Assembly (NCBI GenBank): GCA_965178125.1
Contig: OZ237747.1
Location: 248,001-312,000 of the forward strand
Origin: Bilabrum cf. latius
Lineage: Eukaryota
Reading direction: 5' to 3'
Length of the DNA stretch: 64,000 bases
A program made the position numbers and the translations under genes. Below, one piece after another: positions 15,775-35,182 of this stretch (position 1 is its first letter; each line of letters starts with the position of its first letter). Under the pieces are notes generated by a model. It was not told the origin of the DNA. It ran no database searches and saw nothing but the letters and a program-made list of their open reading frames with translations.

Positions 15775-15903
15775 ATACCAGGTTCGTCTCCATCAGGCTA
15801 CCCATACCCCATATCAACCATAAATGCAGGAATACCGTTTTGCCACTAGTGCAAGCAGGCATGGCTTGATCAACAGGCCATGCACAGAGCGTACCCAAGC
15901 CTA

Positions 15904-17544
15904 TCAGTGCATTGCGACGATGTGCTTCTTGAGACTGCCTGCCTGCCCAAAGCGCTGGCCGCACACAGAGCACTCGTGATTGCGCTCCCCAAGGTGCACA
16001 GTCCTCATGTGCATCGTGAGAGTACCTGCTTGCCCAAAGCGCTTGCCGCACACAGAGCACTCGTGATTGCGCTCCCCCAGGTGCACAGTCCTCATGTGCG
16101 TCGTGAGACTGCCTGCCTCCCCGAAGCGCTTGCCGCACACAGAGCACTCGTGATTGCGCTCCCCAAGGTGCACAGTCCTCATGTGCTTCGTGAGATGGCC
16201 TGCCACCCCAAAGCGCTTGCCGCACACAGAGCACTCGTGATTGCGCTCCCCAAGGTGCACAGTCCTCATGTGCGTCTTGAGATTGCCTGCCTGCCCAAAG
16301 CGCTTGCCGCACACAGAGCACTCGTGATTGCGCTCCCCATGGTGCACAGTCCTCATGTGCTTCGTGAGATTACTTGCCTGCCCAAAGCGCTTGCCGCACA
16401 CAGAGCACTCGTGATTGCGCTCCCCATGGTGCACAGTCCTCATGTGCTTAGTGAGATTGCTTGCCTCCCCGAAGCGCTTGCCGCACACAGAGCACTCGTG
16501 ATTGCGCTCCCCATGGTGCACAGTCCTCATGTGCTTTGTGAGACTGCCTGCCTCCCCGAAGCGCGTGCCGCACACAGAGCACTCGTGATTGCGCTCCCCA
16601 AGGTGCACAGTCCTCATGTGCGTCGTGAGATGGCTTGCCTGCCCGAAGCGCTTGCCGCACACAGAGCACTCGTGATTGCGCTCCCCATGGTGCACAGTCC
16701 TCATGTGCTTTGTGAGACTGCTTGCCTCCCCGAAGCGCTGGCCGCACACAGAGCACTCGTGATTGCGCTCCCCAAGGTGCACAGTCCTCATGTGCATCGT
16801 GAGACTGCCTGCCACCCCAAAGCGCTTGCCGCACACAGAGCACTCGTGATTGCGCTCCCCAAGGTGCACAGTCTTCATGTGCTTAGTGAGATTGCTTGCC
16901 TGCCCAAAGCGCTTGCCGCACACAGAGCACTCGTGATTGCGCTCCCCATGGTGCACAGTCCTCATGTGCTTTGTGAGATTACCTGCCTCCCCGAAGCGCT
17001 TGCCGCACACAGAGCACTCGTGATTGCGCTCCCCAAGGTGCACAGTCCTCATGTGCGTCTTGAGACTGCCTGCCGCCCCAAAGCGCTTGCCGCACACAGA
17101 GCAATCGTATCCCTTGCTCCTATCGCTGGTGGGCACCCCTGCCGCTGGACTCGGCTCCCTTCTCCTCCTCTTCTTCTTCTTCTCGCTTGCACCGTGCTCG
17201 TCCACTGCATCGTCAGCTTCTACGGCAGCCTCCAAGTCTTCACGGACTCTCTTCTGCCCCAAGCGCGCACCTGTGCTGGGAGCACTAGATGACATCGATT
17301 CAGTTGACTAGACTCCAGAAGCCAAGGGCAATGCAGCTGTTGAACTTGGTGCTGACGACAACTCTGGACCAAATGCCCTCCTGCTGCTTCGCCCAGCTCG
17401 CCCACTCCGGGATACAACGGCACCTAGTCCAGATGATCCCTCTTCTGCACGATCACCAAACCCCATGCTTCCGCCGGGGCCGCCCTCAAACTCTTCTTCA
17501 CTATCACTGCTCACCAGGTCGATCACCTCATCTGGATCTGCCAT
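15904..17544 (-). CDS. Tandem C2H2 zinc-finger protein, copy 1 (14 fingers), with N-terminal SIM-like and NLS motifs; 1 in-frame TAG
   Basis: MADPDEVIDLVSSDSEEEF...ASGV(TAG 17308-17310)STESMSSS...KKKKRRRR, then 29-aa CSVCGKRFGxxxxLxxHMRTVHLGERNHE repeats. Ends in TGA. Confidence 0.9.
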
Positions 17545-18003
17545 GGAAAACACGCCAAGATGCAACAGAAAGCCTGCACTGTCTTACAAGCTTGTCTCCA
17601 CTTCAAGTTGATAGGACTAAACACCAATGTCAGCCGAGTCGAGATACACCACGGCTTCCAGTCTGCTCCAGTACTAGGTCAGGGGTTTCGGGGCCTTGCC
17701 TGGATATACCCAACTCGCCACAGTGATGGCAGCTGAAGAAGCCTATACAGACAGAGATTGATTGAAGTTACTCGATGACGCTTCTCGTACTATTCGATAG
17801 GCGCGATCAATTGCCAATGGAGAAGCCTTCCTGGCCTCGGGGTTCCGCAACGAACACGGACCCCGCGCACCGCCAGCACGCAGCCTGCAGTCGATCCAGG
17901 GTTTGCACAGATACCAAGGCTGACACTCAACAAGCACACATGCATACACATCCCCATGACGCCCACATGCTAAGCCCCCTGACCATTCCAAGCCGAGTTC
18001 CAA

Positions 18004-21000
18004 TCACACCATCCCCTCCAGACCCCCGGCACCTCGAGAAGCAAATGAGCCGACTCGGCCACGGCAGTGGCCAGCCGCTTCACCTCCCTCTTCTCCGTCG
18101 CCTTCCCTCGGGGACCACACTCCCACGTGAAGCACCCCCGCACCCCCGCGCTCGGCACACCCAGCGCCCACCCCTTGCCCTGACGGTCCCCCACGCTTAC
18201 CCCCTCCCCGCCCCCGAACACCATCGCCGCCCCCTCCCCGCTCCCGGACCCAGCCCCTTCGTCCACCGAGCCCAGGCCAGACCCAGCCCCAGAGCCCGGG
18301 CTCAAGACCCCCTGCCTCCTCCTGCTCCTGCTGCTCCTCCTGGACCCTGAGCCGATTCCAACGGAGCCCACAGCCACTGGACTCGGGCTGCCCGAGGAGG
18401 AGGACGAAGCAGCGCTCGCGGTGCCGATGCCGTCGGGGCCTGCCACAGCCGATCCCACCCGCATGGCGAGGCGCAGCAGGACGCACACCCTGTCGCTGCA
18501 GCGCACCGCATTCAACCTCGCGCCCAACGACCCACCACCTGCACCTGCACCTCCAGTGGCACAGCGCAGCGCCGAGACAGCCCCTCTGGAGCCCTGGTCC
18601 CCAGCCAAAGCGAGCATGCGCTCGAGCACCTGCTTCCTGCTCGCCTCCGCGCTTGTTCCCTCGCCGCCCCGGGGCACTCCCATCACGGCCTCTCCGCGCA
18701 CCAGGGGCATGGCCCACGCCGCACTGCGATGCATCACGTCGTGCATCATCCAGACCAGCTGAGGCACTACGGCCCGTCTCACCCAGCCGGCGGCGGGCAC
18801 GCGGCAGCACAGGGGGGTTGGGTCCCCCCCATGCCCGGACCCGGGCGCGAGTCCCCGGCCGCCCAGCCGCCCCGCGTCCAGCCCCAGGCCGGCCTCGTCC
18901 CATGGCCCGCAGTTGGCTCCGCGGGGCCGGGTCCAGTCGTTCTCCAGGCTCGCCATGGCCTGGCTCACCTCGCGGGCCGCGCCAGAGGACGGGTGCGTGG
19001 GCGCGGCGGAGGCGCCGCCGTGTTCCCCGAGCGACTCCTAGTCCGATTCCTAGTCCCAGTGCGTGCACGGACCAGGACTTGCGGGGGGCCAAGCCACGAA
19101 GACCGGAACCTACTTGATGCGCTCACGGCCTCGCCCTGCCCCTGCTCCTGCCCCTGTCGATGCCGGTGCCTCCAACCGCTCGTCCTCATCGCCCTCCTCC
19201 TGGTCTCGTGAGATGGGCCGCGAGGGAACCTGCGCGTGCGAACGGATGGACGGCACGCACAGGTCGGCACGTCCGGGCACCAGTCCTCCCAAGCCAGCGT
19301 CCTCGGGGCCCAGCACTCCGGCAGCAGCGGCCCCCGCTGCCCATCGAGTGCGAATGGCCTTCGCTCGCCTACCGCTGCTGCTGCTGCTGCTGCTGCTCCC
19401 GGTTGCATCTGCAGCACCCGAAGCCCCGCCGAGCCTTGCCCCCCAGCCGATCGCCCCTGTCTCTTCGGGCGCAGACCGGCATCCAGCCGCCACCTCTGCT
19501 GCCGCCTCCATGGGTGCCTGCAGCCACCCGCAGGCCCCGGCCCCTGCGCCCGCCACTGCCTCCGCCAGCATGGCCCACGCCCGCAGCGCCAGCAGCTCTG
19601 CCCGCCTGTACCTCCCGCTCGCCCCCTCCCTCCACCGACCCAGCGCGGCCTGCCAGTGCCCCCCCGCCAGTCCCACCAAAGTGGGGGGCCCCTCCAGGGG
19701 CTCCTGCACGGAGGCTTGCCAACGGCGGTACGCCCGCAGCGCGCGAGTCAACCGCCGCCAGCACAGGTGCTCAGACACCGCCAGGCCAAGGCTCGGATGC
19801 GCGGCGCCACTTCCGCACGCGGCCTCCCTGATCGCGTCAGCGGTCTCGTCGTACTTGAGGAGCGATCGCACCGGCGCAAATGGGCCGTAGGAAGGCTCCC
19901 CCTCGTCGTCGGCACCCTGTTCCCTCAGATCCGCAAGCGAAAGCTCCGCGGCCCGAGCCAAGTCACGCGCCTGCTAGGTGGACCCAACGCCCACCCCGTG
20001 GCCATGTGCAACCCCTTGCCCTCCCATGCCGTCCTCGCCATCCGCATCGCGATGCGCGCTCGCCCTGTCCTCTCCCTCTCCCTCTCCCTCTCCCTCTCCC
20101 TCTCCCTCTCCCTCTCCCTCTCCCTCTCCCTCTCCCTCTCCCTCTCCCTCTCCCTCTCCCTCTCCCTCTCCCTCTCCCTCTCCCTCTCCCTCTCCCTCTC
20201 CCTCTCCCTCTCCCTCTCCCTCTCCCTCTCCCTCTCCCTCGCTCTCGTCCCGCACAGACTCGCCCCCCGCGATGCACCCCACCGCGTGCAGCAGAGAGTC
20301 CAGCTCCTGCTCCGCTCTGTCTCCGACCGTGCGCCCGAAGCTAGAAGCACCCCACAGCCGCTCTCCAGCAGACGCTCCCAGCAGCAGAGGACCACCCGCG
20401 GGCGTGACACTGCCGCTCGGCACAGGGGTCCCCGTCGCGTCGCGGGGCCCCTCGCTTGGTCTCGCAAGCCCCATGGCCTTGAGGTGGTGCTCCACCATGA
20501 GCAGCCTGCACTGCGCGTTGGCAGCAGCCAGAGCGGCACGCGCGTCAGGCACGAAGGCAGACACACCTCGCGCGCTAGGCACGCAGGGAAGCGCCGCCGC
20601 GGCCACGGCGTGCACTCGGCGAGCGAGCCCGGGTGCCAGTCTCCATCGCCTGCAGAATGCAGCGCCGGCACTGCCCCCGAGCCCCACGCCCAGTGCGGCC
20701 GGTGCCATGGGCGGGGGCGGTGGCAGGCACCCCGCGCACCGCAGGTCCGCCCCGATCCCCCCCTTGCTGGATGATCCCCCCACGTCCACAAGCGCGGAAG
20801 CAGCCTCCCGCAACGCCTGCCTCGCGCTTGGATCCTCCACGGACCGCTCCCATCCCGGCAGCAGCCCGGCCACTGCGGCCCTCAGACCGGTCGGGGCCAG
20901 GGCAGGGAGGCTCCTCCTTGCGTGCAGAAAGGTGGACGCAAGGGCGCCCCCGTTGCAGCTCGCCCGCTGCAGCGCCGCCGTCAGCACGCCCAGCGCGCGG

Positions 21001-21671
21001 GGCCGCAGGAGCCCCGCCCGCACGTCCGAGGCAGCCCTGCTGTCCGCGCCTTTGGCCAGGTGCGCGATGCACGCGGCAGCATCCACAGCGCGCTGGCACT
21101 GACCCCCAGCAAGCAGGTGGCCCGCGTACAGCTCCAGGATGCGCACGGCGGACCCCATCGCGTGCATGTACTGCGAGCGACAGTCCCTGGCCTGCGCCTC
21201 CGCCTGCTCCCCACTTGTTCCCTGGGTCGCGTGCAGCACCGACCGCGCCAGGTCAGGGGCCACCGCCCGCACCGCGTCGTCGGACAACATGGCACCGCCC
21301 GCCGTCTCCGCGCCGGCACCCATCAGGCGCAGCGCCTGCGCCACGGTGCCGCCGCCGATGAGCCAGCCGGCCACGGCCCCTGCGATGGACCGCAGCACCG
21401 GCGCGTTGGCGGCGGCGAGCCTGGCCCGCGCCATGAAATCGCCGTAGGGGGCGCCCAAACGGCGGGAAGTGTGCGCCAACGAGGCTGCCGCGGCCTCCAG
21501 CTGCGGATAGGTCTCGCTCGACAGTGGGCCGCTGCTGCCTCCCTGCGCGCTACCCCTGACAGACGACACGACCCCCATGCCCCCGCTAGTGCTTCTGCTG
21601 TCCCCCACGGCACCGCGCGAGGGAGAGGAAGCCCCGGAACTCGCCGAGGTGCCCTCTGGAAGCGCCAGCCG
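18004..21671 (-). pseudogene. 5'-truncated duplicate of the 3' part of the Nup107-like gene (copy A), frameshifted near its 3' end
   Basis: Near-identical to 35183-38788. It lacks the 5' part, and a C-run near 18022 is 2 nt shorter than in the other copies, which changes the C-terminus. Confidence 0.7.
20071..20238. repeat. (TCTCCC)n microsatellite, ~28 units, encoding poly-(Glu-Gly) on the minus strand
   Basis: Read directly. Paralogous tracts at ~26195-26235 (degenerate), ~32075-32112 and ~37253-37356 differ in length. Confidence 0.95.
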
Positions 21672-22111
21672 CAAAACGCGCGGACGCTGGCCCCTCGGCG
21701 CTCGGAGAGCACCGCGACTCGATTGCCGCTCAAGTCCAGATGTGACTTCCCAGACTTCCTCCTCTGCAGCTTGTGGTCGGGCGATTCGATCCCCACTCAG
21801 TCTCGCTCATGATCCAGAACAGACCCCCACCCACCCACGCGCACCAGCTTCACCTCCCAGGGACGTCTCCGCCTGGCTATCCATTCCCCCTATCAACCAT
21901 ACCAGATCATCCCGCCGGTCACCTCCTTCACTGCAGTCGCCCTCCCACCAAACCACTTCTTGCCCTGCATAATCTTTACCAAATCCAGTTCTACGCACGA
22001 GACAGAGAAGACCGCGTCAGCAACAAAGCACAAATGCAGGAATACCTTTGACACTGGTGAAAGCAGGCATGAATTGCTAAACAGGTCGTGCACACAGCGT
22101 ATCCAAGCCTA

Positions 22112-23668
22112 TCAGTGCATCGCAGTTATGTGCTTCTTGAGACTGCTTGCCTGCCCAAAGCGCTTGCCGCACACAGAGCACTCGTGATTGCGCTCCCCAA
22201 GGTGCACAGTCCTCATGTGCTTTGTAAGACTGTCTAAGCGCCCAAAGCGCTTGCCGCACACAGAGCACTCGTGATTGCGCTCGCCAAGGTGCACAGTCCT
22301 CATGTGCGTCGTAAGACTGCCTGTCACCCCAAAGCGCTTGCCGCACACAGAGCACTCGTGATTGCGCTCCCCAAGGTGCACAGTCCTCATGTGCCTAGTG
22401 AGACTGCCTGCCACCCCGAAGCGCCTGCCGCACACAGAGCACTCGTGATTGCGCTCCCCAAGGTGCACAGTCCTCATGTGCTTCGCGAGATTGCCTGCCT
22501 CCCCGAAGCGCTTGCCGCACACAGAGCACTCGTGATTGCGCTCCCCAACATGCACAGTCCTCATGTGCGTCTTGAGATGGCCTGCCTCCCCGAAGTGCTT
22601 GCCGCACACAGAGCACTCGTGATTGCGCTCCCCAAGGTGCACAGTCCTCATGTGCGTCTTGAGACTGCCTGCCTGCCCAAAGCGCTGGCCGCACACAGAG
22701 CACTCGTGATTGTGCTCCCCAAGGTGCACAGTCCTCATGTGCGTCGTAAGACTGCCTGCCTCCCCAAAGCGCTGGCCGCACACAGAGCACTCGTGATTGC
22801 GCTCCCCAAGGTGCACAGTCCTCATGTGCGTCGTAAGACTGCCTGCCTGCCCAAAGCGCTGGCCGCACACAGAGCACTCGTGATTGCGCTCCCCAACGTG
22901 CACAGTCCTCATGTGCATGGTGAGATTGCCTGCCTGCCCAAAGCGCTTGCCGCACACAGAGCACTCGTGATTGCGCTCCCCAAGGTGCACAGTCCTCATG
23001 TGCGTCGTAAGACTGCCTGCCTGCCCAAAGCGCTGGCCGCACACAGAGCACTCGTGATTGCGCTCCCCAAGGTGCACAGTCCTCATGTGCTTTGTGAGAC
23101 TGCCTGCCTGCCCAAAGCGCTTGCCGCACACAGAGCACTCGTGATTGCGCTCCCCAAGGTGCACAGTCCTCATGTGCTTTGTGAGACTGCCTGCCACCCC
23201 AAAGCGCTTGCCGCACACAGAGCAGCCGGATCCCTTGCTCCTATCGCTGGTGAGCGCACCTGCCGCTGTACTAGGCTCCCTTCTCCTCCTCTTCTTCTTC
23301 TTCTTGCTGCTTGCACCGCGCCCGACCACTGCATCGCCAGCTTCTACGGCAGTCTCGAAGTCTTCACGGACTCTCTTCTGCCCCAAGCGCGCACCTCTGC
23401 TGGCAGCACTAGATGACATCGATTCAGTTGACTAGACTCCAGAAGCCAATGGCATTGCAGCTGTTGAACTTGATGCTGACGACAACTCTGGACAAAATGC
23501 CCTCCTCCTTCTTCGCCCAGCTCGCCCACTCCATGATACAACGGCACCTAGTCCAGATGATCCATCTTCTGCACGATCACCATCCCCCATGCTTCCGCCG
23601 GGGTTGCCCTCAAACTCTTCTTCACTATCACTGCTCACCAGGTCAATCACCTCATCTGGACCTGCCAT
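22112..23668 (-). CDS. Tandem C2H2 zinc-finger protein, copy 2 (13 fingers); 1 in-frame TAG
   Basis: Same architecture as copy 1 (MAGPDEVIDLVSSDSEEEF; TAG at 23432-23434). Ends in TGA. Confidence 0.9.
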
Positions 23669-24123
23669 GGAAAACACACCAAGATGCAAACAAAGCCTGC
23701 ACTGTCTTACAAGCTTGTCTCCACTTCAAGTTGATAAGACTCAAAACCAATGTCAGCCTAGTCGAGATACACCCCGGCTTCCAGTCTGCTCCAGTACTAG
23801 GTCAGGGATTTCGGGGTCTTGCCTGGAGATACCCAACTCGCCACAGTGATGGCAGCTGAAGAAGCCTATACAGACAGAGATTGAAGATACACGATGAGGC
23901 TTCTCGTACTATTCGATAGGCGCGATCAATAGCCAAGAGTGAAGCCTTCCTGGCCTCGAGGTTCCGGAATGAACATAGACTCCGCGCACTGCCAGCACGC
24001 AGTCTGCAGTCGATCCAGGATTTGCACAGATACCAAGGCTGACACTCAAACAAGCACTCTTGGATACACATCCCCATGACGCCCACACGCTTAACCCCCT
24101 GACCATTCCAAGCCGAGTTCCAA

Positions 24124-27100
24124 TCACACCATCCCCTCCAGACCCCCCGGCACCTCGAGAAGCAAATGAGCCGACTCGGCCACGGCAGTGGCCAGCCGCT
24201 TCACCTCCCTCTTCTCCGTCGCCTTCCCTCGGGGACCACACTCCCACGTGAAGCACTCCCGCACCCCCGCGCTCGGCACACCCAGCGCCCACCCCTTGCC
24301 CTGACGGTCCCCCACGCTTACCCCCTCCCCGCCCCCGAACACCATCGCCGCCCCCTCCCCGCTCCCGGACCCAGCCCCTTCGTCCACCGAGCCCAGGCCA
24401 GACCCACCCCCAGAGCCCGGGCTCAACACCCCCTGCCTACTCCTGCTGATCCTCCTGGACCCTGAGCCGATTCCAACGGAGCCCACAGCCACTGGGCTCG
24501 GGCTGCCCGAGGAGGACGAAGCAGCGCTCGCGGTGCTGATGCCGTCGGGGCCTGCCACAGCCGATCCCACCCGCATGGCGAGGCGCAGCAGGACGCACAC
24601 CCTGTCGCTGCAGCGCACCGCATTCAACCTCGCGCCCAACGACCCACCACCTGCACCTGCACCTGCACCTGCACCTCCAGTGGCACAGCGCAGCGCCGAG
24701 ACAGCCCCTCTGGAGCCCTGGTCCCCAGCCAAAGCGAGCATGCGCTCGAGCACCTGCTTCCTGCTCGCCTCCGCGCTTGTTCCCTCGCCGCCCCGGGGCA
24801 CTCCCATCACGGCCTCTCCGCGCACCAGGGGCATGGCCCACGCCGCACTGCGATGCATCACGTCGTGCATCATCCAGACCAGCTGAGGCACCACGGCCCG
24901 TCTCACCCAGCCGGCGGCGGGCACGCGGCAGCACAGGGGGGTCGGGTCCCCCCCATGCCCGGACCCGGGCGCGAGTCCCCGGCCGCCCAGCCGCCCCGCG
25001 TCCAGCCCCAGGCCGGCCTCGTCCCATGGCCCGCAGTTGGCTCCGCGGGGCCGGGTCCAGTCGTTCTCCAGGCTCGCCATGGCCTGGCTCACCTCGCGGG
25101 CCGCGCCAGCGGACGGGTGCGCGGGCGCGGCGGAGGCGCCGCCGTGTTCCCCGAGCAAGTCCGAGTCCGATTCCTAGTCCCAGTGCGTGCACGGACCAGG
25201 ACTTGCGGGGGGCCAAGCCACGAAGACCGGAACCTACTTGATGCGCGCCCCGCCTCGCCCTGCCCCTGCCCCTGCCCCTGTCGATGCCGATGCCTCTAAC
25301 CGCTCGTCCTCATCGCCCTCCTCCTGGTCTCGTGAGATGGGCCGCGAGGGAACCTGCGCGTGCGAACGGATGGACGGCACGCACAGGTCGGCACGCCCGG
25401 GCACCAGTCCTCCCAAGCCAGCGTCCTCGGGGCCCAGCACTCCCGCAGCAGCGGCCCCCGCTGCCCATCGAGTGCGAATGGCCTTCGCTCGCCTACCGCT
25501 GCTGCTGCTGCTGCTGCTGCCGGTTGCATCTGCAGCACCCGAAGCCCCACCGAGCCTTGCCCCCCAGCCGATCGCCCCTGTCTCTTCGGGCGCAGACCGG
25601 CATCCAGCCGCCACCTCTGCTGCTGCCTCCATGGGTGCCTGCAGCCACCCGCGGGCCCCGGCCCCTGCGCCCGCCACTGCCTCCGCCAGCATGGCCCACG
25701 CCCGCAGCGCCAGCAGCTCTGCCCGCCTGTACCTCCCGCTCGCCCCCTCCCTCCACCGACCCAGCGCGGCCTGCCAGTGCCGCCCCGCCAGTCCCACCAA
25801 AGTGGGGGCCCCCTCCAGGGGCTCCTGCACGGAGGCTTGCCAACGGCGGTACGCCCGCAGCGCGCGAGTCAACCGCCGCCAGCACAGGTGCTCAGACACC
25901 GCCAGGCCAAGGCTCGGATGCGCGGCGCCACTTCCGCACGCGGCCTCCCTGATCGCGTCAGCGGTCTCGTCGTACTTGAGGAGCGATCGCACCGGCGCGA
26001 ACGGGCCGTAGGAAGGCTCCCCCTCGTCGTCGGCACCCTGTTCCCTCAGATCCGCAAGCGAAAGCTCCGCGGCCCGAGCCAAGTCACGCACCTGCTAGGT
26101 GGACCCAACGCCCACCCCGTGGCCATGTGCACACCCTTGCCCTCCCATGCCGTCCTCGCCATCCTCGTCGCGATGCGCGCACGCCCTGTCCTGCCCCTGC
26201 CCCTCTCCCTCTGCCTCTCCCTTTCCCTTTCCCTCGCTCTCGCTCTCGTCCCGCACAGACTCGCCCCCCGCGATGCACCCCACCGCGTGCAGCAGAGAGT
26301 CCAGCTCCTGCTCCGCTCTGTCTCCGACCGTGCGCCCGAAGCTAGAAGCACCCCACAGCCGCTCTCCAGCAGACGCTCCCAGCAGCAGAGGACCCCCCGC
26401 AGGCGTGACACTGCCGCTCGGCACAGGGGTCCCGGCCGCGTCGCGGGGCCCCTCGGTTGGTCTCGCAAGCCCCATGGCCTTGAGGTGGTGCTCCACCACG
26501 AGCAGCCTGCACTGCGTGTTGGCAGCAGCCAGAGCGGCACGCGCGTCAGGCACGAAGGCAGACACACCTCGCGCGCTAGGCACGCAGGGAAGCGTCGCCG
26601 CGGCCACGGCGTGCACCCGGCGAGCGAGCCCGGGTGCCAGTCCCCATCGCCTGCAGAATGCAGCGCCGGCACTGCTCCCGAGCCCCACGCCCAGTGCGGC
26701 CGGTGCCATGGGCGGGGGCGGTGGCAGGCACCCCGCGCACCGCAGGTCCGTCCCGATCCCCCCCTTGCTGAATGACCCCCCCACGTCCACAAGCGCGGAA
26801 GCAGCCTCCCGCAACGCCTGCCTCGCGCTTGGATCCTCCACGGACCGCTCCCATCCCGGCAGCAGCCCGGCCACTGCGGCCCTCAGACCGGCCGGGGCTA
26901 GGGCAGGGAGGCTCCTCCTTGCGTGCAGAAAGGTGGACGCAAGGGCGCCCCCGTTGCAGCTCGCCCGCTGCAGCGCCGCCGTCAGCACGCCCAGCGCGCG
27001 GGGCCGCAGGAGCCCCGCCCGCACGTCCGAGGCAGCCCTGCTGTCCGCGCCTTTGGCCAGGTGCGCGATGCACGCGGCAGCATCCACAGCCCGCTGGCAC

Positions 27101-27623
27101 TGACCCCCAGCAAGCAGGTGGCCCGCGTACAGCTCTAGGATGCGCACGGCGGACCCCATCGCGTGCATGTACTGCGAGCGACAGTCCCTGGCCTGCGCCT
27201 CCGTCTGCTCCCCGTTTGTTCCCTGGGTCGCGTGCAGCACCGACCGCGCCAGGTCAGGGGCCACCGCCCGCACCGCGTCGTCGGACAACATGGCACCGCC
27301 CGCCGTCTCCGCGCCGGCACCCATCAGGCGCAGCGCCTGCGCCACGGTGCCGCCGCCGATGAGCCAGCCGGCCACGGCCCCTGCGATGGACCGCAGCACC
27401 GGCGCGTTGGCGGCGGCGAGCCTGGCCCGCGCCATGGAATCGCCGTAGGGAGCGCCCAAACGGCGGGAAGTGTGCGCCAACGAGGCTGCCGCGGCCTCCA
27501 GCTGCGGATAGGTCTCGCTCGACAGTGGGCCGCTGCTGCCTCCCTGCGCGCTACCCCTGACAGACGAAACGACCCCCATGCCCCCGCTAGTGCTGCTGCT
27601 GTCCCCCACGGCACCGCGCGCGG
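24124..27623 (-). pseudogene. 5'-truncated duplicate of the Nup107-like 3' part (copy B)
   Basis: Near-identical to 35183-38740. The frame is still open under UAG=Gln, but the 5' region is missing. Confidence 0.65.
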
Positions 27624-27672
27624 ACGCTGCCCCCTCAGCGCTCGAAGAGCACCGCGACTCGATTGCCGCTCA

Positions 27673-28221
27673 TGTTATATGTACTCGGACATCAGGATTG
27701 AAGCGACGGGGAGCAGAGGTGAGACGGAAGACGGGGCGGGCGCAGGAGGACAGAAGGTGGAGAAGAAGAGGGGGACACCGGCACAGGCGACGACAGTGCG
27801 GTGTCAACAGGGAGAACACAACGGGAGGAATGGGGGCTCCAGGTGCAATGCACGAGGGAGACGCGGGTGGCAGCGGGCTGCATGGCCAGCAGCACGCAGA
27901 GGGCCAACAGGTGGGTGGACAGATGTGGCGCACGGCAGGTCGGCCAGGACCGGCGCGTGCAAGCTGAAAGGATAGGGCCAAGGTGGCAATGCAGGGAGCA
28001 AAGCACACGGTCCCTAGGGCGCGGACCAGGAACAGGAAGCCATGTGGCGACGAGGCCAGTCGGGTGCATGGGGAAAGTGGCGTATACATTCGTAGTGTCA
28101 GATGAATACCGCATTCAGGTGGACCGGTGAAGAACCAGTCGTTCGGGGTGAAGCCCAGTGGGTCCGCGGGACCGGGGGCAGGAATTTTCTTGGAACAAAT
28201 CTGATCTGTAGTCTAGGTTCA
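27673..28221. mobile_element. Non-coding interspersed element, copy 2 (~549 bp, two internal deletions)
   Basis: Inserted within GCCGCTCA|AGTCCAGAT, which is contiguous at 21725-21741. This is a different site from copy 1, with the same termini. Confidence 0.75.
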
Positions 28222-28600
28222 AGTCCAGATGTGACTTCCCAGACTTCCTCGTCTGCAGCTTGTGGTCAGATGATCCGATCCCCAGTCCGAGCCGCTCATG
28301 ATCCGGAATAGATCAACATACACCCACGCACACCAGCTTCACCTGCCAGGGACGTCTCCGACTGGCTACCCACCCCACCCACCAACCATACCAGATCATC
28401 CCGCCGGTCACCTCCTTCACTGCAGTCGCCCTCCCACCAAACCACTTCTTACCCTGCAGGATGGTTACCAAATCCAGTTCTACGCACGAGAGAGAGAAGA
28501 CCGCGTTAGCAATGAAGCAGAAATGCAGGAATACCTTTGCCACTGATGGCAGCAGGCATGCATTGATCAACAGGTCATGCACACAGCGTATCCAAGACTA

Positions 28601-29548
28601 TCAGTGCATCGCAATTATGTGCTTCTTGAGATGGCCTGGGCGCCCAAAGCGCTTGCCGCACACACAGCACTCGTGATTGCGCTCCCCAAGGTGCACAGTC
28701 CTCATGTGCGTCTGAAGACTGCCTGCCTGCCCAAAGCGCTTGCCGCACACAGAGCACTCGTGATTGCGCTCCCCAACGTGCACAGTCCTCATGTGCGTCG
28801 TGAGACTGCCTGCCTCCCCAAACCGCTTGCCGCACACAGAGCACTCGTGATTGCGCTCCCCAAGGTGCACAGTCCTCATGTGCGTTGTGAGATGGCCTGC
28901 CTCCCCAAAGCGCTTGCCGCACACAGAGCACTCGTGATTGCGCTCCCCAACGTGCACAGTCCTCATGTGCGTCTTGAGACTGCTTGCCACTCCAAAGCGC
29001 TTGCCGCACACAGAGCACTCGTGATTGCGCTCCCCAAGGTGCACAGTCCTCATGTGCCTAGTGAGACTGCCTGCCGCCCCGAAGCGCTTGCCGCACACAG
29101 AGCAGTCGTATCCCTTGCTCCTATCGCTGGTGAGCAACCCTGCCGCTGGACTCTGCTCCCTTCTCCTCCTCTTCTCCTTCTTCTTGCTGCTTGCACCGCG
29201 CCCGTCCACTGCATCGTCATCTTCTACGGCAGCCTGGAAGTCTTCATGGACTCTCTTCTGCCCCAAGCGCGCACCTGTGCTACCAGCACTAGATGACACA
29301 GATTCAGTTGACTAGACTCCAGAAGCCAAGGGCAATGCAGCTGTTGAACTTGGTGCTGACGACAACTCTGGACCAAATGCCCTCCTGCTGCTTCGCCCAG
29401 CTCGCCCACCCCATGATACAACGGCACCAACTCCAGATGATCCATCTTCTGCACGATCACCAGCCCCCATGCTTCCGCCGGGGTTGCTCTCAAACTCTTC
29501 TTCACTATCACTGCTCACAAGGTCAATCACCTCATCTGGACCTGCCAT
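28601..29548 (-). CDS. Tandem C2H2 zinc-finger protein, copy 3 (6 fingers); 1 in-frame TAG
   Basis: Same architecture; TAG at 29312-29314; ends in TGA. Confidence 0.88.
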
Positions 29549-30007
29549 GGAAAACACGCCAAGATGCAACAGAAAGCCTGCACTGTCTTACAAGCTTGTC
29601 TCCACTTCAAGTCGATCGGACTAAACACCAATGTCAGCCGAGTCGAGATACACCACGGCTTCCAGTCTGCTCCAGTACCAGGTCAGGGATTTCGGGGCCT
29701 TGCCTGGAGATACCCAACTCGCCACAGTGATGCCAACTGAAGAAGCCTGTACAGACAGAGATTGATTGAAGTTACACGATGACGCTTCTCGTACTATTCG
29801 ATAGGCGCGATCAATTGCCAATGGAGAAGCCTTCCTGGCCTCGAGGTTCCGCAATGAACATGGACTCCGCGCACTGCCAGCACGCAGTCTGCAGTCGATC
29901 CAGGGTTTGCACAGATACCAAGGCTGACACTCAACAAGCACACATGCATACACATCCCCATGACGCCCACATGCTAAGCCCCCTGACCATTCCAAGCCGA
30001 GTTCCAA

Positions 30008-32607
30008 TCACACCATCCCCTCCAGACCCCCCGGCACCTCGAGAAGCAAATGAGCCGACTCGGCCACGGCAGTGGCCAGCCGCTTCACCTCCCTCTTCTC
30101 CGTCGCCTTCCCTCGGGGACCACACCCCCACGTGAAGCACTCCCGCACCCCCGCGCTCGGCACACCCAGCGCCCACCCCTTGCCCTGACGGTCCCCCACG
30201 CTTACCCCCTCCCCGCCCCCGAACACCATCGCCGCCCCCTCCCCGCTCCCGGACCCAGCCCCTTCGTCCACCGAGCCCAGGCCAGACCCACCCCCAGAGC
30301 CCGGGCTCAACACCCCCTGCCTACTCCTGCTGATCCTCCTGGACCCTGAGCCGATTCCAACGGAGCCCACAGCCACTGGGCTCGGGCTGCCCGAGGAGGA
30401 CGAAGCAGCGCTCGCGGTGCTGATGCCGTCGGGGCCTGCCACAGCCGATCCCACCCGCATGGCGAGGCGCAGCAGCACGCACACCCTGTCGCTGCAGCGC
30501 ACCGCATTCAACCTCGCGCCCAACGACCCACCACCTGCACTTGCACCTGCACCTCCAGTGGCACAGCGCAGCGCCAAGACAGCCCCTCTGGAGCCCTGGT
30601 CCCCAGCCAAAGCGAGCATGCGCTCGAGCACCTGCTTCCTGCTCGCCTCCGCGCTTGTTCCCTCGCCGCCCCGGGGCACTCCCATCACGGCCTCTCCGCG
30701 CACCAGGGGCATGGCCCACGCCGCACTGCGATGCATCACGTCGTGCATCATCCAGACCAGCTGAGGCACTACGGCCCGTCTCACCCAGCCGGCGGCGGGC
30801 ACGCGGCAGCACAGGGGGGTCGGGTCCCCCCCATGCCCGGACCCAGGCGCGAGTCCCCGGCCGCCCAGCCGCCCCGCGTCCAGCCCCAGGCCGGCCTCGT
30901 CCCATGGCCCGCAGTTGGCTCCGCGGGGCCGGGTCCAGTCGTTCTCCAGGCTCGCCATGGCCTGGCTCACCTCGCGGGCCGCGCCAGAGGACGGGTGCGT
31001 GGGCGCGGCGGAGGCGCCGCCGTGTTCCCCGAGCAACTCCTAGTCCGATTCCGAGTCCCAGCGCGTGCACGGACCAGGACTTGCGGGGGGCCAAGCCACG
31101 AAGACCGGAACCTACTTGATGCACGCCCCGCCTCGCCCTGCCCCTGCCCCTGCCCCTGTCAATGCCGATGCCTCCAACCGCTCGTCCTCATCGCCCTCCT
31201 CCTGGTCTCGTGAGATGGGCCGCGAGGGAACCTGCGCGTGCGAACGGATGGACACCACGCACAGGTCGGCACGTCCGGGCACCAGTCCTCCCAAGCCAGC
31301 GTCCTCGGGGCCCAGCACTCCCGCAGCAGCGGCCCCCGCTGCCCATCGAGTGCGAATGGCCTTCGCTCGCCTACCGCTGCTGCTGCTGCTGCTGCTGCCG
31401 GTTGCATCTGCAGCACCCGAAGCCCCGCCGAGCCTTGCCCCCCAGCCGATTGCCCCTGTCTCTTCGGGCGCAGACCGGCATCCAGCCGCCACCTCTGCTG
31501 CCGCCTCCATGGGTGCCTGCAGCCACCCGCGGGCCCCAGCCCCTGCGCCCGCCACTGCCTCCGCCAGCATGGCCCACGCCCGCAGCGCCAGCAGCTCTGC
31601 CCGCCTGTACCTCCCGCTCGCCCCCTCCCTCCACCGACCCAGCGCGGCCTGCCAGTGCCCCCCCGCCAGTCCCACCAAAGTGGGGGGCCCCTCCAGGGGC
31701 TCCTGCACGGAGGCTTGCCAACGGCGGTACGCCCGCAGCGCGCGAGTCAACCGCCGCCAGCACAGGTGCTCAGACACCGCCAGGCCAAGGCTCGGATGCG
31801 CGGCGCCACTTCCGCACGCGGCCTCCCTGATCGCGTCAGCGGTCTCGTCGTACTTGAGGAGCGATCGCACCGGCGCAAATGGGCCGTAGGAAGGCTCCCC
31901 CTCGTCGTCGGCACCCTGTTCCCTCAGATCCGCAAGCGAAAGCTCCGCGGCCCGAGCCAAGTCACGCGCCTGCTAGGTGGACCCGACGCCCACCCCGTGG
32001 CCATGTGCACCCCCTTGCCCTCCCATGCCGTCCTCGCCATCCGCATCGCGATGTGCGCTCGCCCTGTCCTGCCCCTCTCCCTCTCCCTCTCCCTCTCCCT
32101 CTCCCTCTCCCTCGCTCTCGTCCCGCACAGACTCGCCCCCCGCGATGCACCCCACCGCGTGCAGCAGAGAGTCCAGCTCCTGCTCCGCTCTGTCTCCGAC
32201 CGTGCGCCCGAAGCTAGAAGCACCCCACAGCCGCTCTCCAGCAGACGCTCCCAGCAGCAGAGGACCCCCCGCGGGCGTGACACTGCCGCTCGGCACAGGG
32301 GTCCCCGTCGCGTCGCGGGGCCCCTCGCTTGGTCTCGCAAGCCCCATGGCCTTGAGGTGGTGCTCCACCATGAGCAGCCTGCACTGCGCGTTGGCAGCAG
32401 CCAGAGCGGCACGCGCGTCAGGCACGAAGGCAGACACACCTCGCGCGCTAGGCACGCAGGGAAGCGCCGCCGCGGCCACGGCGTGCACCCGGCGAGCAAG
32501 CCCGGGTGCCAGTCTCCATCGCCTGCAGAATGCAGCGCCGGCACTGCCCCCGAGCCCCACGCCCAGTGCGGCCGGTGCCATGGGCGGGGGCGGTGGCAGG
32601 CACCCCG
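30008..32607 (-). pseudogene. 5'-truncated duplicate of the Nup107-like 3' part (copy C, shortest)
   Basis: Near-identical to 35183-37851. Identity breaks abruptly after GGCACCCCG at ~32607. Confidence 0.65.
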
Positions 32608-32729
32608 AGCGGCTACTGAATTCCAACGCGAGACCTCATACTCGGAGATCACAATGGCAGCACCATCCACGTCGTGGATGGGTGTTGTGCACACCCAACC
32701 GAATGTCACCGGGACATGCATGGGGTGTA

Positions 32730-33033
32730 GCCCTAGTTTTCAGCTTGCACGCGCCGGTCCTGGCCGACCTGCCGTGCGCCCCATCTGTCCACCCACCTGT
32801 TGGCCCTCTGCGTGCTGCTGGCCAGCCGCCCGCTGCCACCCGTGTCTCCCTCCTGCCTTGCACCTGGAGCCCCCATTCCTCCCGTTGTGTTCTCCCTGTT
32901 GACACCGCACTGTCGTCGCCTGTGCCGGTGTCCCCCTCTTCTTCTCCACCTCCTGTCTTCCTGCGCCCACCTCGTCTTCCGTCTCACCTCTGCTCCCCGT
33001 CGCTTCAATCCTGATGTCCGAGTACATATACCA
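32730..33033. mobile_element. Partial, inverted copy 3 of the interspersed element
   Basis: Reverse complement of ~15130-15435 (…CAGCTTGCACGCGCCGG…GATGTCCGAGTACATATACCA). Confidence 0.7.
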
Positions 33034-33170
33034 GAAATATACACACACCCCAGTTCTACGCACCAGAGAGAAGACCGCGTCAGCAATAAAGCAGAAATGC
33101 AGGAATACCTTTGCCACTGGTGAAAGCAGGCATGGATTACTCAACACGTCAAGCCCAGTATCCAAGCCTA

Positions 33171-34724
33171 TCAGTGCATCGCATTCATGTGCTTCTTGAG
33201 ACTGCCTGCCTCCCCGAAGCGCTTGCCGCACACAGAGCACTCGTGATTGCGCTCCCCAAGGTGCACGGTCCTCATGTGTCTCGTGAGACTGCCTGCCTCC
33301 CCGAAATGCTTGCCGCACACAGAGCACTCGTGATTGCGCTCCCCAAGGTGCACAGTCCTCATGTGCGTCGTGAGACTGCCTGCCTGCCCAAAGCGCTGGC
33401 CGCACACACAGCACTCGTGATTGCGCTCCCCAAGGTGCACAGTCCTCATGTGCTTCGTGAGACTGCCTGCCTGCCCAAAGCGCTTGCCGCACGCAGAGCA
33501 CTCGTGATTGCGCTCCCCAAAGTGCACAGTCCTCATGTGCGTCGTGAGATGGCCTGAGCGCCCGAAGCGCTTGCCGCACACAGAGCACTCGTGATTGCGC
33601 TCCCCAAGGTGCACAGTCCTCATGTGCTTCTTGAGACTGCCTGCCTCCCCGAAGTGCTTGCCGCACACAGAGCACTCGTGATTGCGCTCCCCAAGGTGCA
33701 CAGTCCTCATGTGCTTTGTAAGATTGCCTGCCTGCCCAAAGCACTTGCCGCACACAGAGCACTCGTGATTGCGCTCCCCAAGGTGCACAGTCCTCATGTG
33801 CGTCCTGAGACTGCCTGCCTCCCCAAAGCGCTGGCCGCACACAGAGCACTCGTGATTGCGCTCCCCAAGGTGTACAGTCCTCATGTGCATTGTGAGATGG
33901 CCTGCCATCCCAAAGCGCTGGCCGCACACAGAGCACTCGTGATTGCGCTCCCCAAGGTGCACAGTCCTCATGTGCGTTGTGAGATGGCCTGCCTCCCCGA
34001 AGCGCTTGCCGCACACAGAGCACTCGTGATTGCGCTCCCCAAGGTGCACAGTCCTCATGTGCTTCGCGAGATTGCCTGCCTCCCCGAAGCGCTTGCCGCA
34101 CACAGAGCACTCGTGATTGCGCTCCCCAAGGTGCACAGTCCTCATGTGCGTCTTGAGATGGCCTGCCTCCCCGAAATGCTTGCCGCACACAGAGCACTCG
34201 TGATTGCGCTCCCCAAGGTGCACAGTCCTCATGTGCGTCTTGAGACTGCCTGGGCGCCCAAAGCGCTTGCCGCACACAGAGCACTCGGATCCCTTGCTCC
34301 TATCGCTGGTGAGCAACCCTGCCGCTGTACTCGGCTCCCTTCTCCTCCTCTTCTTCTTCTTCTCGCTTGCACCGTGCTCGTCCACTGCATCGTCAGCCTC
34401 TACGGCAGCCTGGAAGTCTTCACGGACTCTCTTCTGCCCCAAGCGCGCACCTCTGCTGGCAGCACTAGATGACATCGATTCAGTTGACTAGACTCCAGAA
34501 GCCAATGGCATTGCAGCTGTTGAACCTGATGCTGACGACAACTCTGGACCAAATGCCCTCATGCTTCTTCGCCCAGCTCGCCCACCCCATGATACAACGG
34601 CACTTAGTCCAGATGATCCCTCTTCTGCACGATCACCAAACCCCATGCTTCCGCCGGGGTTGCTCTCAAACTCTTCTTCACTATCACTGCTCACCAGGTC
34701 AATCACCTCATCTGGACCTGCCAT
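33171..34724 (-). CDS. Tandem C2H2 zinc-finger protein, copy 4 (13 fingers); 1 in-frame TAG
   Basis: Same architecture; TAG at 34488-34490; ends in TGA. Confidence 0.9.
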
Positions 34725-35182
34725 GGAAAACACGCCAAGATACAAGCAAGCCTGCACTGTCTTACAAGCTTGTCTCCACTTCTAGTTGATCGGACTCAAC
34801 ACCAATGTCAGCCGAGTCGAGATACACCACGGCTTCCAGTCTGCTCCAGTACAAGGTCAGGGATTTCGGGGCCTTGCCTGGAGATACCCAACTCGCCACA
34901 GTGATGGCAGCTGAAGAAGCCTATACAGACAGAGATTGAAGTTACACGATGACGCTTCTCGTACTATTCGATAGGCGCGATCAATTGCCAATGGAGAAGC
35001 CTTCCTGGCCTCGAGGTTCCGCAATGAACATGGACTCCGCGCACTGCCAGCACGCAGTCTGCAGTCGATCCAGGGTTTGCACAGATACCAAGGCTGGCAC
35101 TCAACAAGCACACATTGATTCGTACCCCCATGACGCCCACATGCTAAGCCCCCTGACCATGCCAAGCCGAGTTCATTTCCAA

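Follow-up and report, generated by a model that had tools for sequence, protein, structure and literature searches.

Poly-zinc-finger families that diversify rapidly are seen as peculiar to animals and are tied to either transposon control (KRAB, FiNZ) or recombination (PRDM9). A cluster of four genes encoding C2H2 arrays, located in 64,000 nucleotides of DNA from Bilabrum cf. latius (contig OZ237747.1, positions 248,001 to 312,000; here, the window), raises the question of whether this evolutionary mode also operates in a genome that does not look animal and, if so, which of the known systems the arrays resemble.

The gene cluster and its finger unit

Four minus-strand ORFs, referred to as Z1 to Z4, carry 14, 13, 6, and 13 C2H2 fingers, respectively. 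These counts, which derive from the assembly sequence, were obtained from the ORF list and by counting fingers, and they agree with those given in a preliminary description of the locus. The genes and their arrays, the latter delimited with Tandem Repeats Finder, are as follows.

15904..17295, minus strand: Z1, poly-C2H2 gene, ORF of 463 aa, 14 fingers
15920-17108: 87-bp array of Z1
17104-17295, minus strand: N-terminal 64 aa of Z1
22112..23419, minus strand: Z2, poly-C2H2 gene, ORF of 435 aa, 13 fingers
22128-23224: 87-bp array of Z2
28601..29299, minus strand: Z3, short paralogue, ORF of 232 aa, 6 fingers
about 28617-29109: 87-bp array of Z3
33171..34475, minus strand: Z4, poly-C2H2 gene, ORF of 434 aa, 13 fingers
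33185-34290: 87-bp array of Z4

All four copies retain the start context and, 15 nt upstream of the start, an in-frame stop; the stop positions are also conserved. Z3 has GTG instead of ATG at the start codon position; this short paralogue may be a decaying copy that has lost its ATG. Pfam zf-C2H2 matched each protein in 6 to 14 stretches (Z1, E 2.8e-85, 14 stretches; Z2, 2.2e-78; Z4, 9.7e-75; Z3, 1.3e-37), with scores of 126 to 276 bits (cutoff, 25.2), and zf-H2C2_2 scored 131 to 319 bits (cutoff, 40). By profile match, the arrays are canonical Krueppel-type C2H2 fingers (PF00096/PF13465).

Tandem Repeats Finder reported a period of 87 and 13.7, 12.6, 5.4, and 12.7 copies in Z1 to Z4, with 91 to 93% matches and 0 to 2% indels. 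The finger-to-finger interval is exactly 29 aa (87 bp) in 42 of 42 cases. The 87-bp register is therefore as first described, but the unit is not almost invariant, given the 91 to 93% identity and the fact that 40 of the 42 full units are distinct at the DNA level. An invariant 33-nt part of the unit matched the window 42 times (at most 3 mismatches), always within Z1 to Z4, and had matches in none of 100 shuffles of the window. The zinc ligands Cys2, Cys5, His18, and His23 (C-X2-C-X12-H-X4-H) are kept in all 46 fingers, and Phe9 and Leu15 are invariant across the 42 full ones. Apart from one residue more between the two histidines (H-X4-H), the fingers are canonical. A conserved 7-residue linker of the TGEKP type is typical of DNA-binding polydactyl arrays; in Z1 to Z4 the linker (L/H/V-G-E-R-N-H-E) retains this length and the G-E core, with T, K, P, and Y replaced. 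An AlphaFold2 single-sequence model of Z3 displayed six beta-beta-alpha modules (pLDDT, 70 to 80) preceded by a disordered N terminus, with a global pTM of 0.21, a value in line with a beads-on-a-string arrangement. Among solved structures, the nearest chains belong to arrays bound to DNA: ZNF568 (5v3m, E 1.5e-72), followed by Aart, CTCF, and the zinc-finger domain of PRDM9 (5v3g, E 4.9e-26).

These matches bear on whether the arrays might instead bind RNA or protein, or build a structural repeat protein, in which case the helix variation would track other partners. The departure of the linker from TGEKP and the H-X4-H spacing would fit such a role, as would a weaker match to the double-stranded-RNA-binding family zf-C2H2_jaz (E 5e-21 to 1e-34, with no stretch passing alone). 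We nonetheless regard it as improbable, as the best matches are DNA-binding Krueppel-type models and DNA-bound solved arrays, the length and G-E core of the linker are canonical, and the variation falls on positions that contact bases in known complexes.

In the N terminus of about 64 aa, an acidic stretch precedes a basic patch of the KKKKRRRR type, which we interpret as a putative nuclear localization signal. At E ≤10, the N-terminal peptides of Z1, Z2, and Z4 yielded no Pfam match other than one at 0.1 to an unrelated family. SET, PR, KRAB (PF01352), SSXRD, ZAD (PF07776), SCAN (PF02023), and BTB domains were found neither in these peptides nor among the best 25 of the 27 to 35 Pfam matches, which upholds the earlier statement on the absence of SET and KRAB.

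Tandem duplication and turnover of the finger units

Z1 to Z4 sit in a four-copy tandem duplication with units of about 4.4 to 5.8 kb, each gene lying beside a block of orphan ORFs with 72% GC. The duplication units and the other repeated feature of the cluster, an element of about 546 bp identified by BLAST, are located as listed below.

15813..21671: duplication unit 1, Z1 plus neighbour block (ORFs 17970-18968, 19110-19961, and 19974-21674, minus strand)
21985..27623: duplication unit 2, Z2 plus neighbour ORF block
28219..32607: truncated duplication unit 3, with Z3 and a portion of the neighbour block
33050..39358: duplication unit 4, Z4 and the neighbour block in its longest form (35183-36154, 36296-37144, and 37157-39358, minus strand)
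27673..28218: TE-like element of about 546 bp, high copy, just 3′ of Z3
15130-15679: second copy of the 546-bp element, 3′ of Z1
32738-33030: inverted partial copy of the 546-bp element, 3′ of Z4

Self-BLAST aligned unit 1 with unit 4 at 95.4% (16005-20184 versus 33185-37368) and 98.6% (20124-21671 versus 37242-38788). The corresponding values were 94.5% (21985-26252 versus 33050-37313) and 98.3% (26195-27623 versus 37311-38739) for unit 2 and 95.5% (28617-32124 versus 33796-37307) and 98.4% (32058-32607 versus 37301-37851) for unit 3. Since the flanks of the four units are 94 to 98.6% identical, the cluster is young. The neighbour-block ORFs, which are candidate coding sequences, had no Pfam domain, and substitutions between their copies are too sparse to prove coding. 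The 733-aa ORF of unit 4 matched only three library proteins at E ≤1e-10, each a short fragment, and its best-scoring Atlas family, at 0.76, was not convincing.

Against this collinear background, the fingers behave differently. Terminal fingers are orthologous and flanks are collinear between paralogues, whereas the internal fingers lack collinear orthology, so the units have been shuffled. The mean distance between fingers was 6.9 nt per 87 within arrays and 7.1 between arrays, with no diagonal of orthology. Identical or near-identical units are scattered at shifted positions; for instance, Z2 finger 9 and Z4 finger 3 have no differences. Cross-paralogue comparison thus supports the claim that each paralogue has its own finger order. 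Spread within a single array is indicated by CAT at codon 24, a variant exclusive to Z1 that recurs in five of its fingers.

The site 3′ of Z2 that corresponds to these insertions (about 21732) is empty, lacking the 546-bp element. We also compared Z3 (six fingers) and its flanks with short-read contigs of sequencing runs, of which run X1 had no cover at 27001-27338. In X1, summed contig depth over the element was 40 to 100 times that of neighbouring bins, and contigs of runs X5 and X7 skip 27669-28219. Adjacency of the element to the genes is no evidence of its being their target. The Rfam and tRNA scans returned no matches and no genes, respectively. The genome around the cluster is clearly that of a GC-rich, gene-dense eukaryote; a CLPTM1-based protein search had its best named match in a green alga (45% identity), followed by basidiomycetes (31 to 43%).

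Variation and apparent selection at the DNA-contact positions

In zinc finger-DNA complexes, bases are contacted by helix positions -1, 2, 3, and 6. Over the 42 full fingers, the residues found were E/Q/V/R/A/M at -1, G/S/D at 2, S/N/H/T at 3, T/K/A/Q/R at 5, and T/K/M/R at 6; further variation was seen at position 7 (K/Q), at position 8 (R/H/C), and at the residue that begins the linker (L/H/V/F). Amino acid entropy reached 2.07, 1.52, and 1.64 bits at -1, 3, and 6, compared with 0 to 0.2 at most scaffold positions, and the 42 fingers include 33 distinct helices. The contact codons (-1, 2, 3, and 6; 4 of 29 codons) accounted for 56% of the pairwise nonsynonymous differences, a share reached by 6 of 23,751 four-codon sets. 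Their dN/dS was 2.6 relative to their own dS and 3.2 (bootstrap, 2.5 to 4.0) relative to the dS of all codons, and that of the scaffold was 0.31 (0.22 to 0.43, bootstrap over fingers), values that do not constitute a clean test because the fingers are paralogous repeats exchanging sequence by conversion and hence nonindependent, the contact codons number only four, and relatedness is ignored. Per-position counts, the 56% share, and dN/dS all bear out the preliminary claim that variation concentrates at recognition-helix positions. Homogenization of synonymous sites had been overstated, as it is not full: pS over units was 0.106, mainly owing to codons 9, 15, and 16. Judging from these ratios, the scaffold is under purifying selection, and the DNA-reading residues are apparently under diversifying selection.

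The same pattern could arise among young duplicates under relaxed constraint, either ordinary transcription factors or decaying genes, whose helix positions would merely tolerate change with no adaptive diversification. The 94 to 98.6% identity of the flanks marks the cluster as young, the truncated Z3 has lost its ATG, and the N-terminal 63 codons have more variable columns at codon positions 1 and 2 (8 and 12) than at position 3 (5), all of which would suit this scenario. The distinct variants do so as well: with 13 nonsynonymous and 4 synonymous variants at the contact codons and 22 and 14 at the others, contact codons are not clearly different from the rest by such counts, and the signal lies in the variant frequencies. 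In all four arrays, contact-site variants occur at intermediate frequency, whereas scaffold variants are nearly all singletons. This distribution speaks against relaxed constraint, which further predicts a dN/dS of ≤1 where the contact codons gave 2.5 to 4.0, and ligands and reading frame are intact in 46 of 46 fingers. We therefore consider relaxed constraint unlikely as an explanation, and diversifying selection on the contact residues remains the reading we pursue below.

Relatives, comparison with known systems, and proposed explanation

Contigs from four runs, each labelled as a different organism, contained array words at 90 to 100% identity together with the flanks. Sequencing runs that had been guessed to be RNA are probably DNA. 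Summed contig depth over the array words was about 10 to 60 times that of the flanks, which, depth being no copy number, hints at further arrays elsewhere in those genomes. No relatives were found outside these few related sequencing runs. A full-length protein search (8,000 candidates sharing most words; 254 to 811 aa) recovered animal poly-ZNFs at ≤54% identity among the best 120 and nothing near-identical among them. The N-terminal 66 residues of Z3, searched against a collection of 5.8 billion proteins (127 to 406 aa), brought up 40 candidates, of which not one reached E ≤0.001. The invariant 33-nt part of the unit had no exact match in JGI metagenome contigs or in IMG/VR viral contigs. 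Eighty metagenome loci from an alignment-based scan were rejected as family members, being generic poly-ZNFs with ≤50% identity in every case. In the main texts of openly available papers, we found no account of C2H2 arrays from outside animals that are both minisatellite-like and positively selected.

The lack of an N-terminal match in the 5.8-billion-protein collection and of near-identical proteins among the best 120 would be expected if there were no working gene family but an untranslated minisatellite, pseudogenes, or an artefact of collapsed or expanded repeats, and array lengths do rest on the assembly, with only short-read contigs to compare. Such an origin is nevertheless highly unlikely. 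The scaffold dN/dS of 0.31 applies in exactly the C2H2 frame, the only one that is stop free across all 42 units; start and stop positions are conserved; indels amount to 0% in three of the four arrays, unlike in error-prone repeat assembly; and independent runs labelled as four organisms carry both array words and flanks.

Several systems offer points of comparison for a working family. The KRAB zinc-finger proteins (KZFPs) of tetrapods, whose arrays are encoded by a single exon, share with Z1 to Z4 long Krueppel-type arrays in a single ORF, tandem gene clusters, TE-like insertions within the cluster, contact residues diversified on a conserved scaffold, and the CxxCGKxF...L..H...H consensus. 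In contrast, Z1 to Z4 lack KRAB, their unit is 29 aa with H-X4-H and the linker LGERNHE (28 aa, H-X3-H, and TGEKPYx in KZFPs), and their host is GC rich, gene dense, and not animal looking.

The array of PRDM9 is described (e.g., PMC3890296 and PMC8925151) as a coding minisatellite of units that are alike except at -1, 3, and 6 and shuffled in order; Z1 to Z4 are likewise a coding minisatellite, hypervariable between fingers at -1, 3, and 6, with shuffled units. These likenesses, together with the place of the PRDM9 zinc-finger domain in the set of solved relatives (5v3g, E 4.9e-26), are what would recommend a true PRDM9-type system, with arrays designating meiotic recombination sites in a hotspot-erosion Red Queen. 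Yet the PR/SET, KRAB-related, and SSXRD domains are absent, leaving a 64-aa N terminus only; ZNF568, Aart, and CTCF are better-ranked matches than the PRDM9 chains; and PRDM9 is one highly polymorphic gene with many alleles, whereas Z1 to Z4 form a multicopy tandem family, probably with more members elsewhere. A 2026 preprint also places the origin of PRDM9 function inside eumetazoans. We hence judge a recombination-designating role very improbable, and the term "PRDM9-like," applied in the preliminary description, stands as an evolutionary analogy but not as membership, given the missing domains.

Wells et al. (2023; PMC10547256) depict the FiNZ-ZNF genes of cyprinid fish as a large lineage-specific family with a short acidic N terminus lacking similarity to known domains, arranged in tandem clusters, under positive selection, expressed at zygotic genome activation, and experimentally shown to repress TEs. 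By that description, Z1 to Z4 are alike in the acidic composition of the N terminus before the array, the tandem clustering, and positive selection; they differ in that the FiNZ stretch has 28 aa and their own N terminus has about 63 aa, including the basic patch. Non-metazoan C2H2 proteins are fewer, limited in base-contacting diversity, and slowly evolving, according to Najafabadi et al. (2017; PMC5588721). Z1 to Z4 resemble the factors described there in falling outside the canonical animal effector-domain families but depart from them in having up to 14 fingers, 33 helices in 42 full fingers, and a contact dN/dS of >1. Altogether, Z1 to Z4 are analogous to the PRDM9, KRAB, and FiNZ genes and, as judged from Pfam domains, members of none.

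The explanation we favour, and hold to be reasonably probable, is that Z1 to Z4 make up a lineage-specific family of nuclear, sequence-specific DNA-binding poly-C2H2 proteins in which units are re-dealt and contact residues are diversified by selection. Each protein would comprise a short disordered N terminus and a string of Krueppel-type fingers and no more, with each array encoded by one exon that is a coding minisatellite of 87 bp. The scaffold would be kept uniform, and the finger order re-dealt, by gene conversion and unequal crossing-over, both inside each tandem copy and across copies, and selection would retain new combinations of contact residues. Each array would thereby read a different long DNA word, at up to about 3 bp per finger, although Ser at position 3 and Thr at position 6 render motifs predicted from a recognition code too degenerate to tell much. 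More tentatively, the targets may be DNA that itself changes fast, with repeats or selfish elements, the 546-bp element for example, as the most plausible candidates; with such targets, the functional counterpart of the family would be KRAB/FiNZ rather than PRDM9. Weighing against the proposal are the absence of an effector domain, a linker that departs from TGEKPYx, the H-X4-H spacing, and the lost ATG of Z3.

A bolder version, in which a non-animal eukaryote independently evolved a re-programmable recognition family in the style of KZFPs and PRDM9, with possibly at least ~100 finger units per genome and possibly directed against selfish DNA, is conceivable but doubtful. Such an independent non-animal origin, if true, would contradict the view of Najafabadi et al. 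(2017; PMC5588721) that only in metazoans does C2H2 specificity diversify rapidly. If the genes are silent or constraint is relaxed, the cluster would be an ordinary young tandem duplication. If the host is non-animal and the genes are expressed, it would show this evolutionary mode in compact form, free of introns and effector domains, and could serve to ask whether minisatellite-coded re-targeting arises whenever a genome faces fast-changing DNA and what minimal protein it takes. Natural variation at the contact residues also makes the 29-aa H-X4-H unit a library of finger variants that is ready for use.

Zinc-finger genes and their repeat unit

Four minus-strand ORFs at 15.9-34.5 kb of the window, here termed Z1 to Z4, encode the C2H2 arrays.

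Poly-C2H2 genes of the window, with repeat copies from Tandem Repeats Finder and fingers from the translated ORFs
15904-17295, minus strand: Z1, 463 codons, 13.7 copies, 14 fingers
22112-23419, minus strand: Z2, 435 codons, 12.6 copies, 13 fingers
28601-29299, minus strand: Z3, 232 codons, 5.4 copies, 6 fingers
33171-34475, minus strand: Z4, 434 codons, 12.7 copies, 13 fingers

Tandem Repeats Finder set the period at 87 bp (matches, 91-93%; indels, 0-2%), and translation equated one unit with one 29-residue C2H2 finger (E-C-S-V-C-G-K-R-F-G-x-A-G-x-L-x-x-H-M-R-T-V-H-L-G-E-R-N-H). The three analyses together reproduced the 14, 13, 6, and 13 fingers on an 87-bp unit reported in the preliminary description, in both count and register; the unit is not "almost invariant," as had been stated there, since 40 of the 42 full units have distinct DNA sequences. 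Finger-to-finger spacing is exactly 29 residues in all 42 intervals, and both cysteines and both histidines are intact in 46/46 fingers, with the spacing C-X2-C-X12-H-X4-H. The animal C2H2 unit commonly has 28 aa, and the extra residue of Z1 to Z4 thus sits between the histidines. The linker, LGERNHE, has the canonical length of seven residues. Each protein matched the Pfam family zf-C2H2 over 6 to 14 separate stretches (E of 1e-38 to 3e-85), and a single-sequence AlphaFold2 model of Z3 predicts six beta-beta-alpha modules (pLDDT, 70-80) behind a disordered N terminus. The closest solved chains were DNA-bound arrays, namely ZNF568 (E of 1.5e-72) followed by Aart, CTCF, and the zinc-finger domain of PRDM9; that these arrays bind RNA or protein instead is improbable in our judgment. 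All 42 matches of the window to a 33-nt invariant part of the unit (up to 3 mismatches) fall within Z1 to Z4, and 100 shuffles produced none. The arrays are real, well past chance expectation, and we regard it as very unlikely that they are non-functional or artefactual.

All four copies have an in-frame stop 15 nt before the start position, indicating that the ORF begins there. Z3 has GTG in place of ATG as its start codon, a feature that, taken with the count of six fingers and the truncation of its duplication unit, suggests a decaying copy. All four proteins stop at the last zinc-binding His. Their N-terminal 63-65 residues, predicted to be disordered in the Z3 model, combine an acidic stretch with a basic patch of KKKKRRRR type, read from its composition as a putative nuclear-localisation signal. 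The N-termini of Z1, Z2, and Z4 matched no Pfam family at E up to 10, bar one unrelated match at 0.1. No SET, KRAB, SSXRD, ZAD, SCAN, or BTB domain was found among the best 25 of the 27-35 Pfam matches of the proteins or in the N-termini of Z1, Z2, and Z4, so the reported absence of SET and KRAB holds. Of 189 aligned columns in the N-terminal 63 codons (17107-17295 in Z1), 25 vary among the four paralogues, distributed as 8, 12, and 5 over codon positions 1, 2, and 3. The greater change at positions 1 and 2 implies that the disordered N terminus evolves faster in protein than the adjacent DNA.

Contact-codon variation and probable array turnover

Variation and dN/dS were computed on the 42 full fingers, the four terminal linker-less fingers being left out.

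Residues at the variable sites of the 42 full fingers
Helix position -1: E16, Q14, V6, R3, A2, M1
Helix position 2: G35, S6, D1
Helix position 3: S24, N9, H8, T1
Helix position 5: T30, K8, A2, Q1, R1
Helix position 6: T20, K15, M4, R3
Residue 7: K32, Q8, T1, R1
Residue 8: R37, H4, C1
First linker residue: L32, H5, V4, F1

These counts reproduce the variation previously assigned to helix positions -1, 2, 3, 5, and 6 and add three sites that the earlier list lacked (residues 7 and 8 and the first linker residue). Thirty-three different helices occur among the 42 fingers. The four contact codons (helix positions -1, 2, 3, and 6) hold 56% of the pairwise non-synonymous differences, a share equalled by only 6 of 23,751 four-codon sets. 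Per-site diversity and dN/dS, the check proposed in the preliminary description, thus place the variation at the contact codons: Nei-Gojobori dN/dS there was 2.6 with dS taken from the same codons and 3.2 with dS taken from all codons (2.5-4.0 in a bootstrap over fingers), versus 0.31 (0.22-0.43) for the 23 scaffold codons, ratios to be read with caution because the contact set comprises just four codons and the fingers share ancestry and exchange sequence, a kinship that the bootstrap does not take into account. No frame other than that of the zinc fingers is open throughout all 42 units. In a simple tally of distinct variants, the contact codons had 13 non-synonymous and 4 synonymous changes versus 22 and 14 elsewhere, a difference that is not clear. 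All four arrays carry contact variants at intermediate frequency, whereas scaffold variants are nearly all singletons; the signal hence comes from contact-variant frequencies rather than from the number of distinct variants. Relaxed constraint in young duplicates is an alternative that we consider rather unlikely. Homogenisation of synonymous sites, as first described, is not complete: pS is 0.106, with differences mainly at codons 9 (TTT/TTC), 15 (CTC/CTT), and 16 (ACN).

Self-comparison of the window placed each gene within one copy of a four-copy tandem duplication.

Tandem duplication units (about 4.4-5.8 kb each)
15.8-21.7 kb, containing Z1
22.0-27.6 kb, containing Z2
28.2-32.6 kb, containing Z3
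33.05-38.8 kb, containing Z4

Every unit comprises one zinc-finger gene and a same-strand upstream block of long ORFs, and flank identity among the units is 94-98.6%. Between units, identity falls from 96-100% in the neighbour block to 93-96% over the 700 nt that precede the start codon, 91-95% across the N-terminal coding region, and 86-89% in the terminal finger, and it vanishes about 100 nt past the stop. Array interiors have no collinear orthology, which bears out the differing finger order claimed for the paralogues; orthology is clear for the terminal finger only. Mean finger distance is 6.9 nt per 87 within arrays versus 7.1 between arrays. Shifted matches link Z2 fingers 8-9 with Z4 fingers 2-3 (3 and 0 differences) and Z3 finger 3 with Z4 finger 4 (1 difference). 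An array-specific signal at non-helix sites is weak, being reached by 25 of 1000 label permutations; for instance, CAT at codon 24 occurs in five Z1 fingers and no others. We infer from this pattern that the tandem copies have undergone unequal crossing-over and gene conversion, both internally and with one another, processes that would be expected to generate it. Unit exchange together with purifying selection would account for the uniform scaffold; finger order would be re-dealt, and selection would retain new combinations of contact residues.

Genomic surroundings and related sequences

The co-duplicated neighbour block has a GC content of 72% and harbours a CCTCTC microsatellite.

Features adjoining the zinc-finger genes
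17970-21674, minus strand: neighbour block of long ORFs
24124-27609, minus strand: neighbour block
30008-32626, minus strand: neighbour block
35183-39358, minus strand: neighbour block
20069-20240, 32073-32113, 37252-37357, and about 26.2 kb in unit 2: CCTCTC microsatellite within the neighbour ORF
15130-15679: second copy of an element of about 546 bp, just 3′ of Z1
27673-28218: high-copy element of about 546 bp, just 3′ of Z3
32738-33030: inverted partial copy of the element, 3′ of Z4

The block is more uniform across units (96-100%) than the adjoining zinc-finger genes (86-95%). It matched no Pfam family, only three library proteins at E up to 1e-10, all short fragments, and no convincing relative in Atlas. 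When its copies are compared, the internal gaps mostly have lengths in multiples of 3. It may be either one putative orphan gene with short introns or non-coding. On the minus strand, the microsatellite encodes a (GE)n run; its copy numbers of 28.7, 6.8, and 17.7 in three duplication units, with few in unit 2, indicate that its length changes faster than its surroundings, which are 96-100% identical.

The element of about 546 bp has TG at its start and CA at its end, and its two junctions share a 3-bp overlap (TCA); it looks like a putative solo LTR or other short high-copy mobile element. The equivalent site 3′ of Z2 (about 21732) is empty, contigs of two related sequencing runs (X5 and X7) skip the element, and its summed contig depth in a third run (X1) is 40-100x that of neighbouring bins. 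Copies, empty site, and depth show selfish DNA to be active around the cluster, and the position of the element is no sign that it is a target.

A full-length protein search, which scored only the 8,000 candidates sharing most words, gave no near-identical protein among the best 120 of 2,342 matches; the best were animal poly-ZNFs at ≤54% identity. The N-terminus was absent among proteins of 127-406 aa (E up to 0.001). The 33-nt invariant part of the unit had no exact match in JGI metagenomes or in IMG/VR. A degenerate scan returned 80 metagenome loci, which were generic poly-ZNFs (≤50% identity) and were not counted as family. Eight sequencing runs, from four studies and with four coded organism labels, contain 20-65% of the words sampled along 10 kb that include Z1 and Z2. 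Over 27001-32050 (Z3 and flanks), flank and array words were found at 90-100% identity in contigs of all four runs compared, and summed word depth, which is not copy number, was about 10 to 60x higher in array bins than in flanking bins, a hint that finger units in these genomes clearly outnumber the 46 counted here. In contigs of two runs (X6 and X7), position 31702 is followed, after 24 letters of other sequence, by 28219. The junction implies a tandem unit of about 3.5 kb whose boundary is unlike that in the window, a hint that the cluster varies structurally among related organisms.

Eukaryote-type genes in the window encode CLPTM1, a UAA nucleotide-sugar transporter, and a cupin/JmjC-like protein. 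CLPTM1 has a 95% match in a sequencing-run assembly; its best named relative is from a green alga (45% identity), followed by basidiomycetes (31-43%). The window is gene-dense, with a GC content of 50-73% and long uninterrupted ORFs mostly on one strand, and nothing in its sequence has the look of an animal genome. Atlas, protein-cluster, Rfam, and tRNA scans did not help in placing the host; because neither relatives nor scans placed it, a protist is plausible only. Genes run co-directionally over a long distance at positions 1-44000: almost all long ORFs of recognisable content are on the minus strand, for example the UAA transporter at 1048-2034, the cupin-like ORF at 6240-7097, the ORF at 42002-42775, and the zinc-finger genes plus their neighbours, and GC skew is negative throughout. 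Three copies of a 53-bp repeat, 99% identical, occupy 47827-47984.

Relation to known poly-zinc-finger systems

Poly-C2H2 genes that lie in tandem, turn over in the manner of minisatellites, and have diversified contact residues are a known kind of system; unusual in Z1 to Z4 are the 29-aa H-X4-H unit, the lack of an effector domain, and the probably non-animal host. The animal PRDM9, KRAB-ZNF, and FiNZ-ZNF genes share this evolutionary mode. Membership fails for the first two, as the defining PR/SET domain of PRDM9 and KRAB domain of KRAB-ZNF are absent from these proteins. The preliminary interpretation as a PRDM9-like minisatellite family therefore stands for turnover and contact residues but not for family membership, and a true PRDM9-type role in recombination is most improbable. 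The nearest analogue in architecture, by published description, is FiNZ, which has a short acidic N-terminal sequence without known homology before a positively selected array and lies in tandem clusters (PMC10547256). Taken together, the sequence features make it fairly probable that Z1 to Z4 represent a lineage-specific family of poly-zinc-finger proteins that would be nuclear and bind DNA with sequence specificity, and whose arrays would be single-exon coding minisatellites with selected combinations of contact residues.

The host of these genes is probably not an animal. Non-metazoan C2H2 proteins are, according to Najafabadi et al., fewer, slow to evolve, and of limited contact-residue diversity (PMC5588721), a description with which 33 helices among 42 fingers would be at odds if the host is non-metazoan. 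Searches of the openly searchable literature turned up no account of such arrays beyond animals. The significance of the family would rise much if expression, strain-to-strain array variation, a non-metazoan host, and sequence-specific targets proved true.
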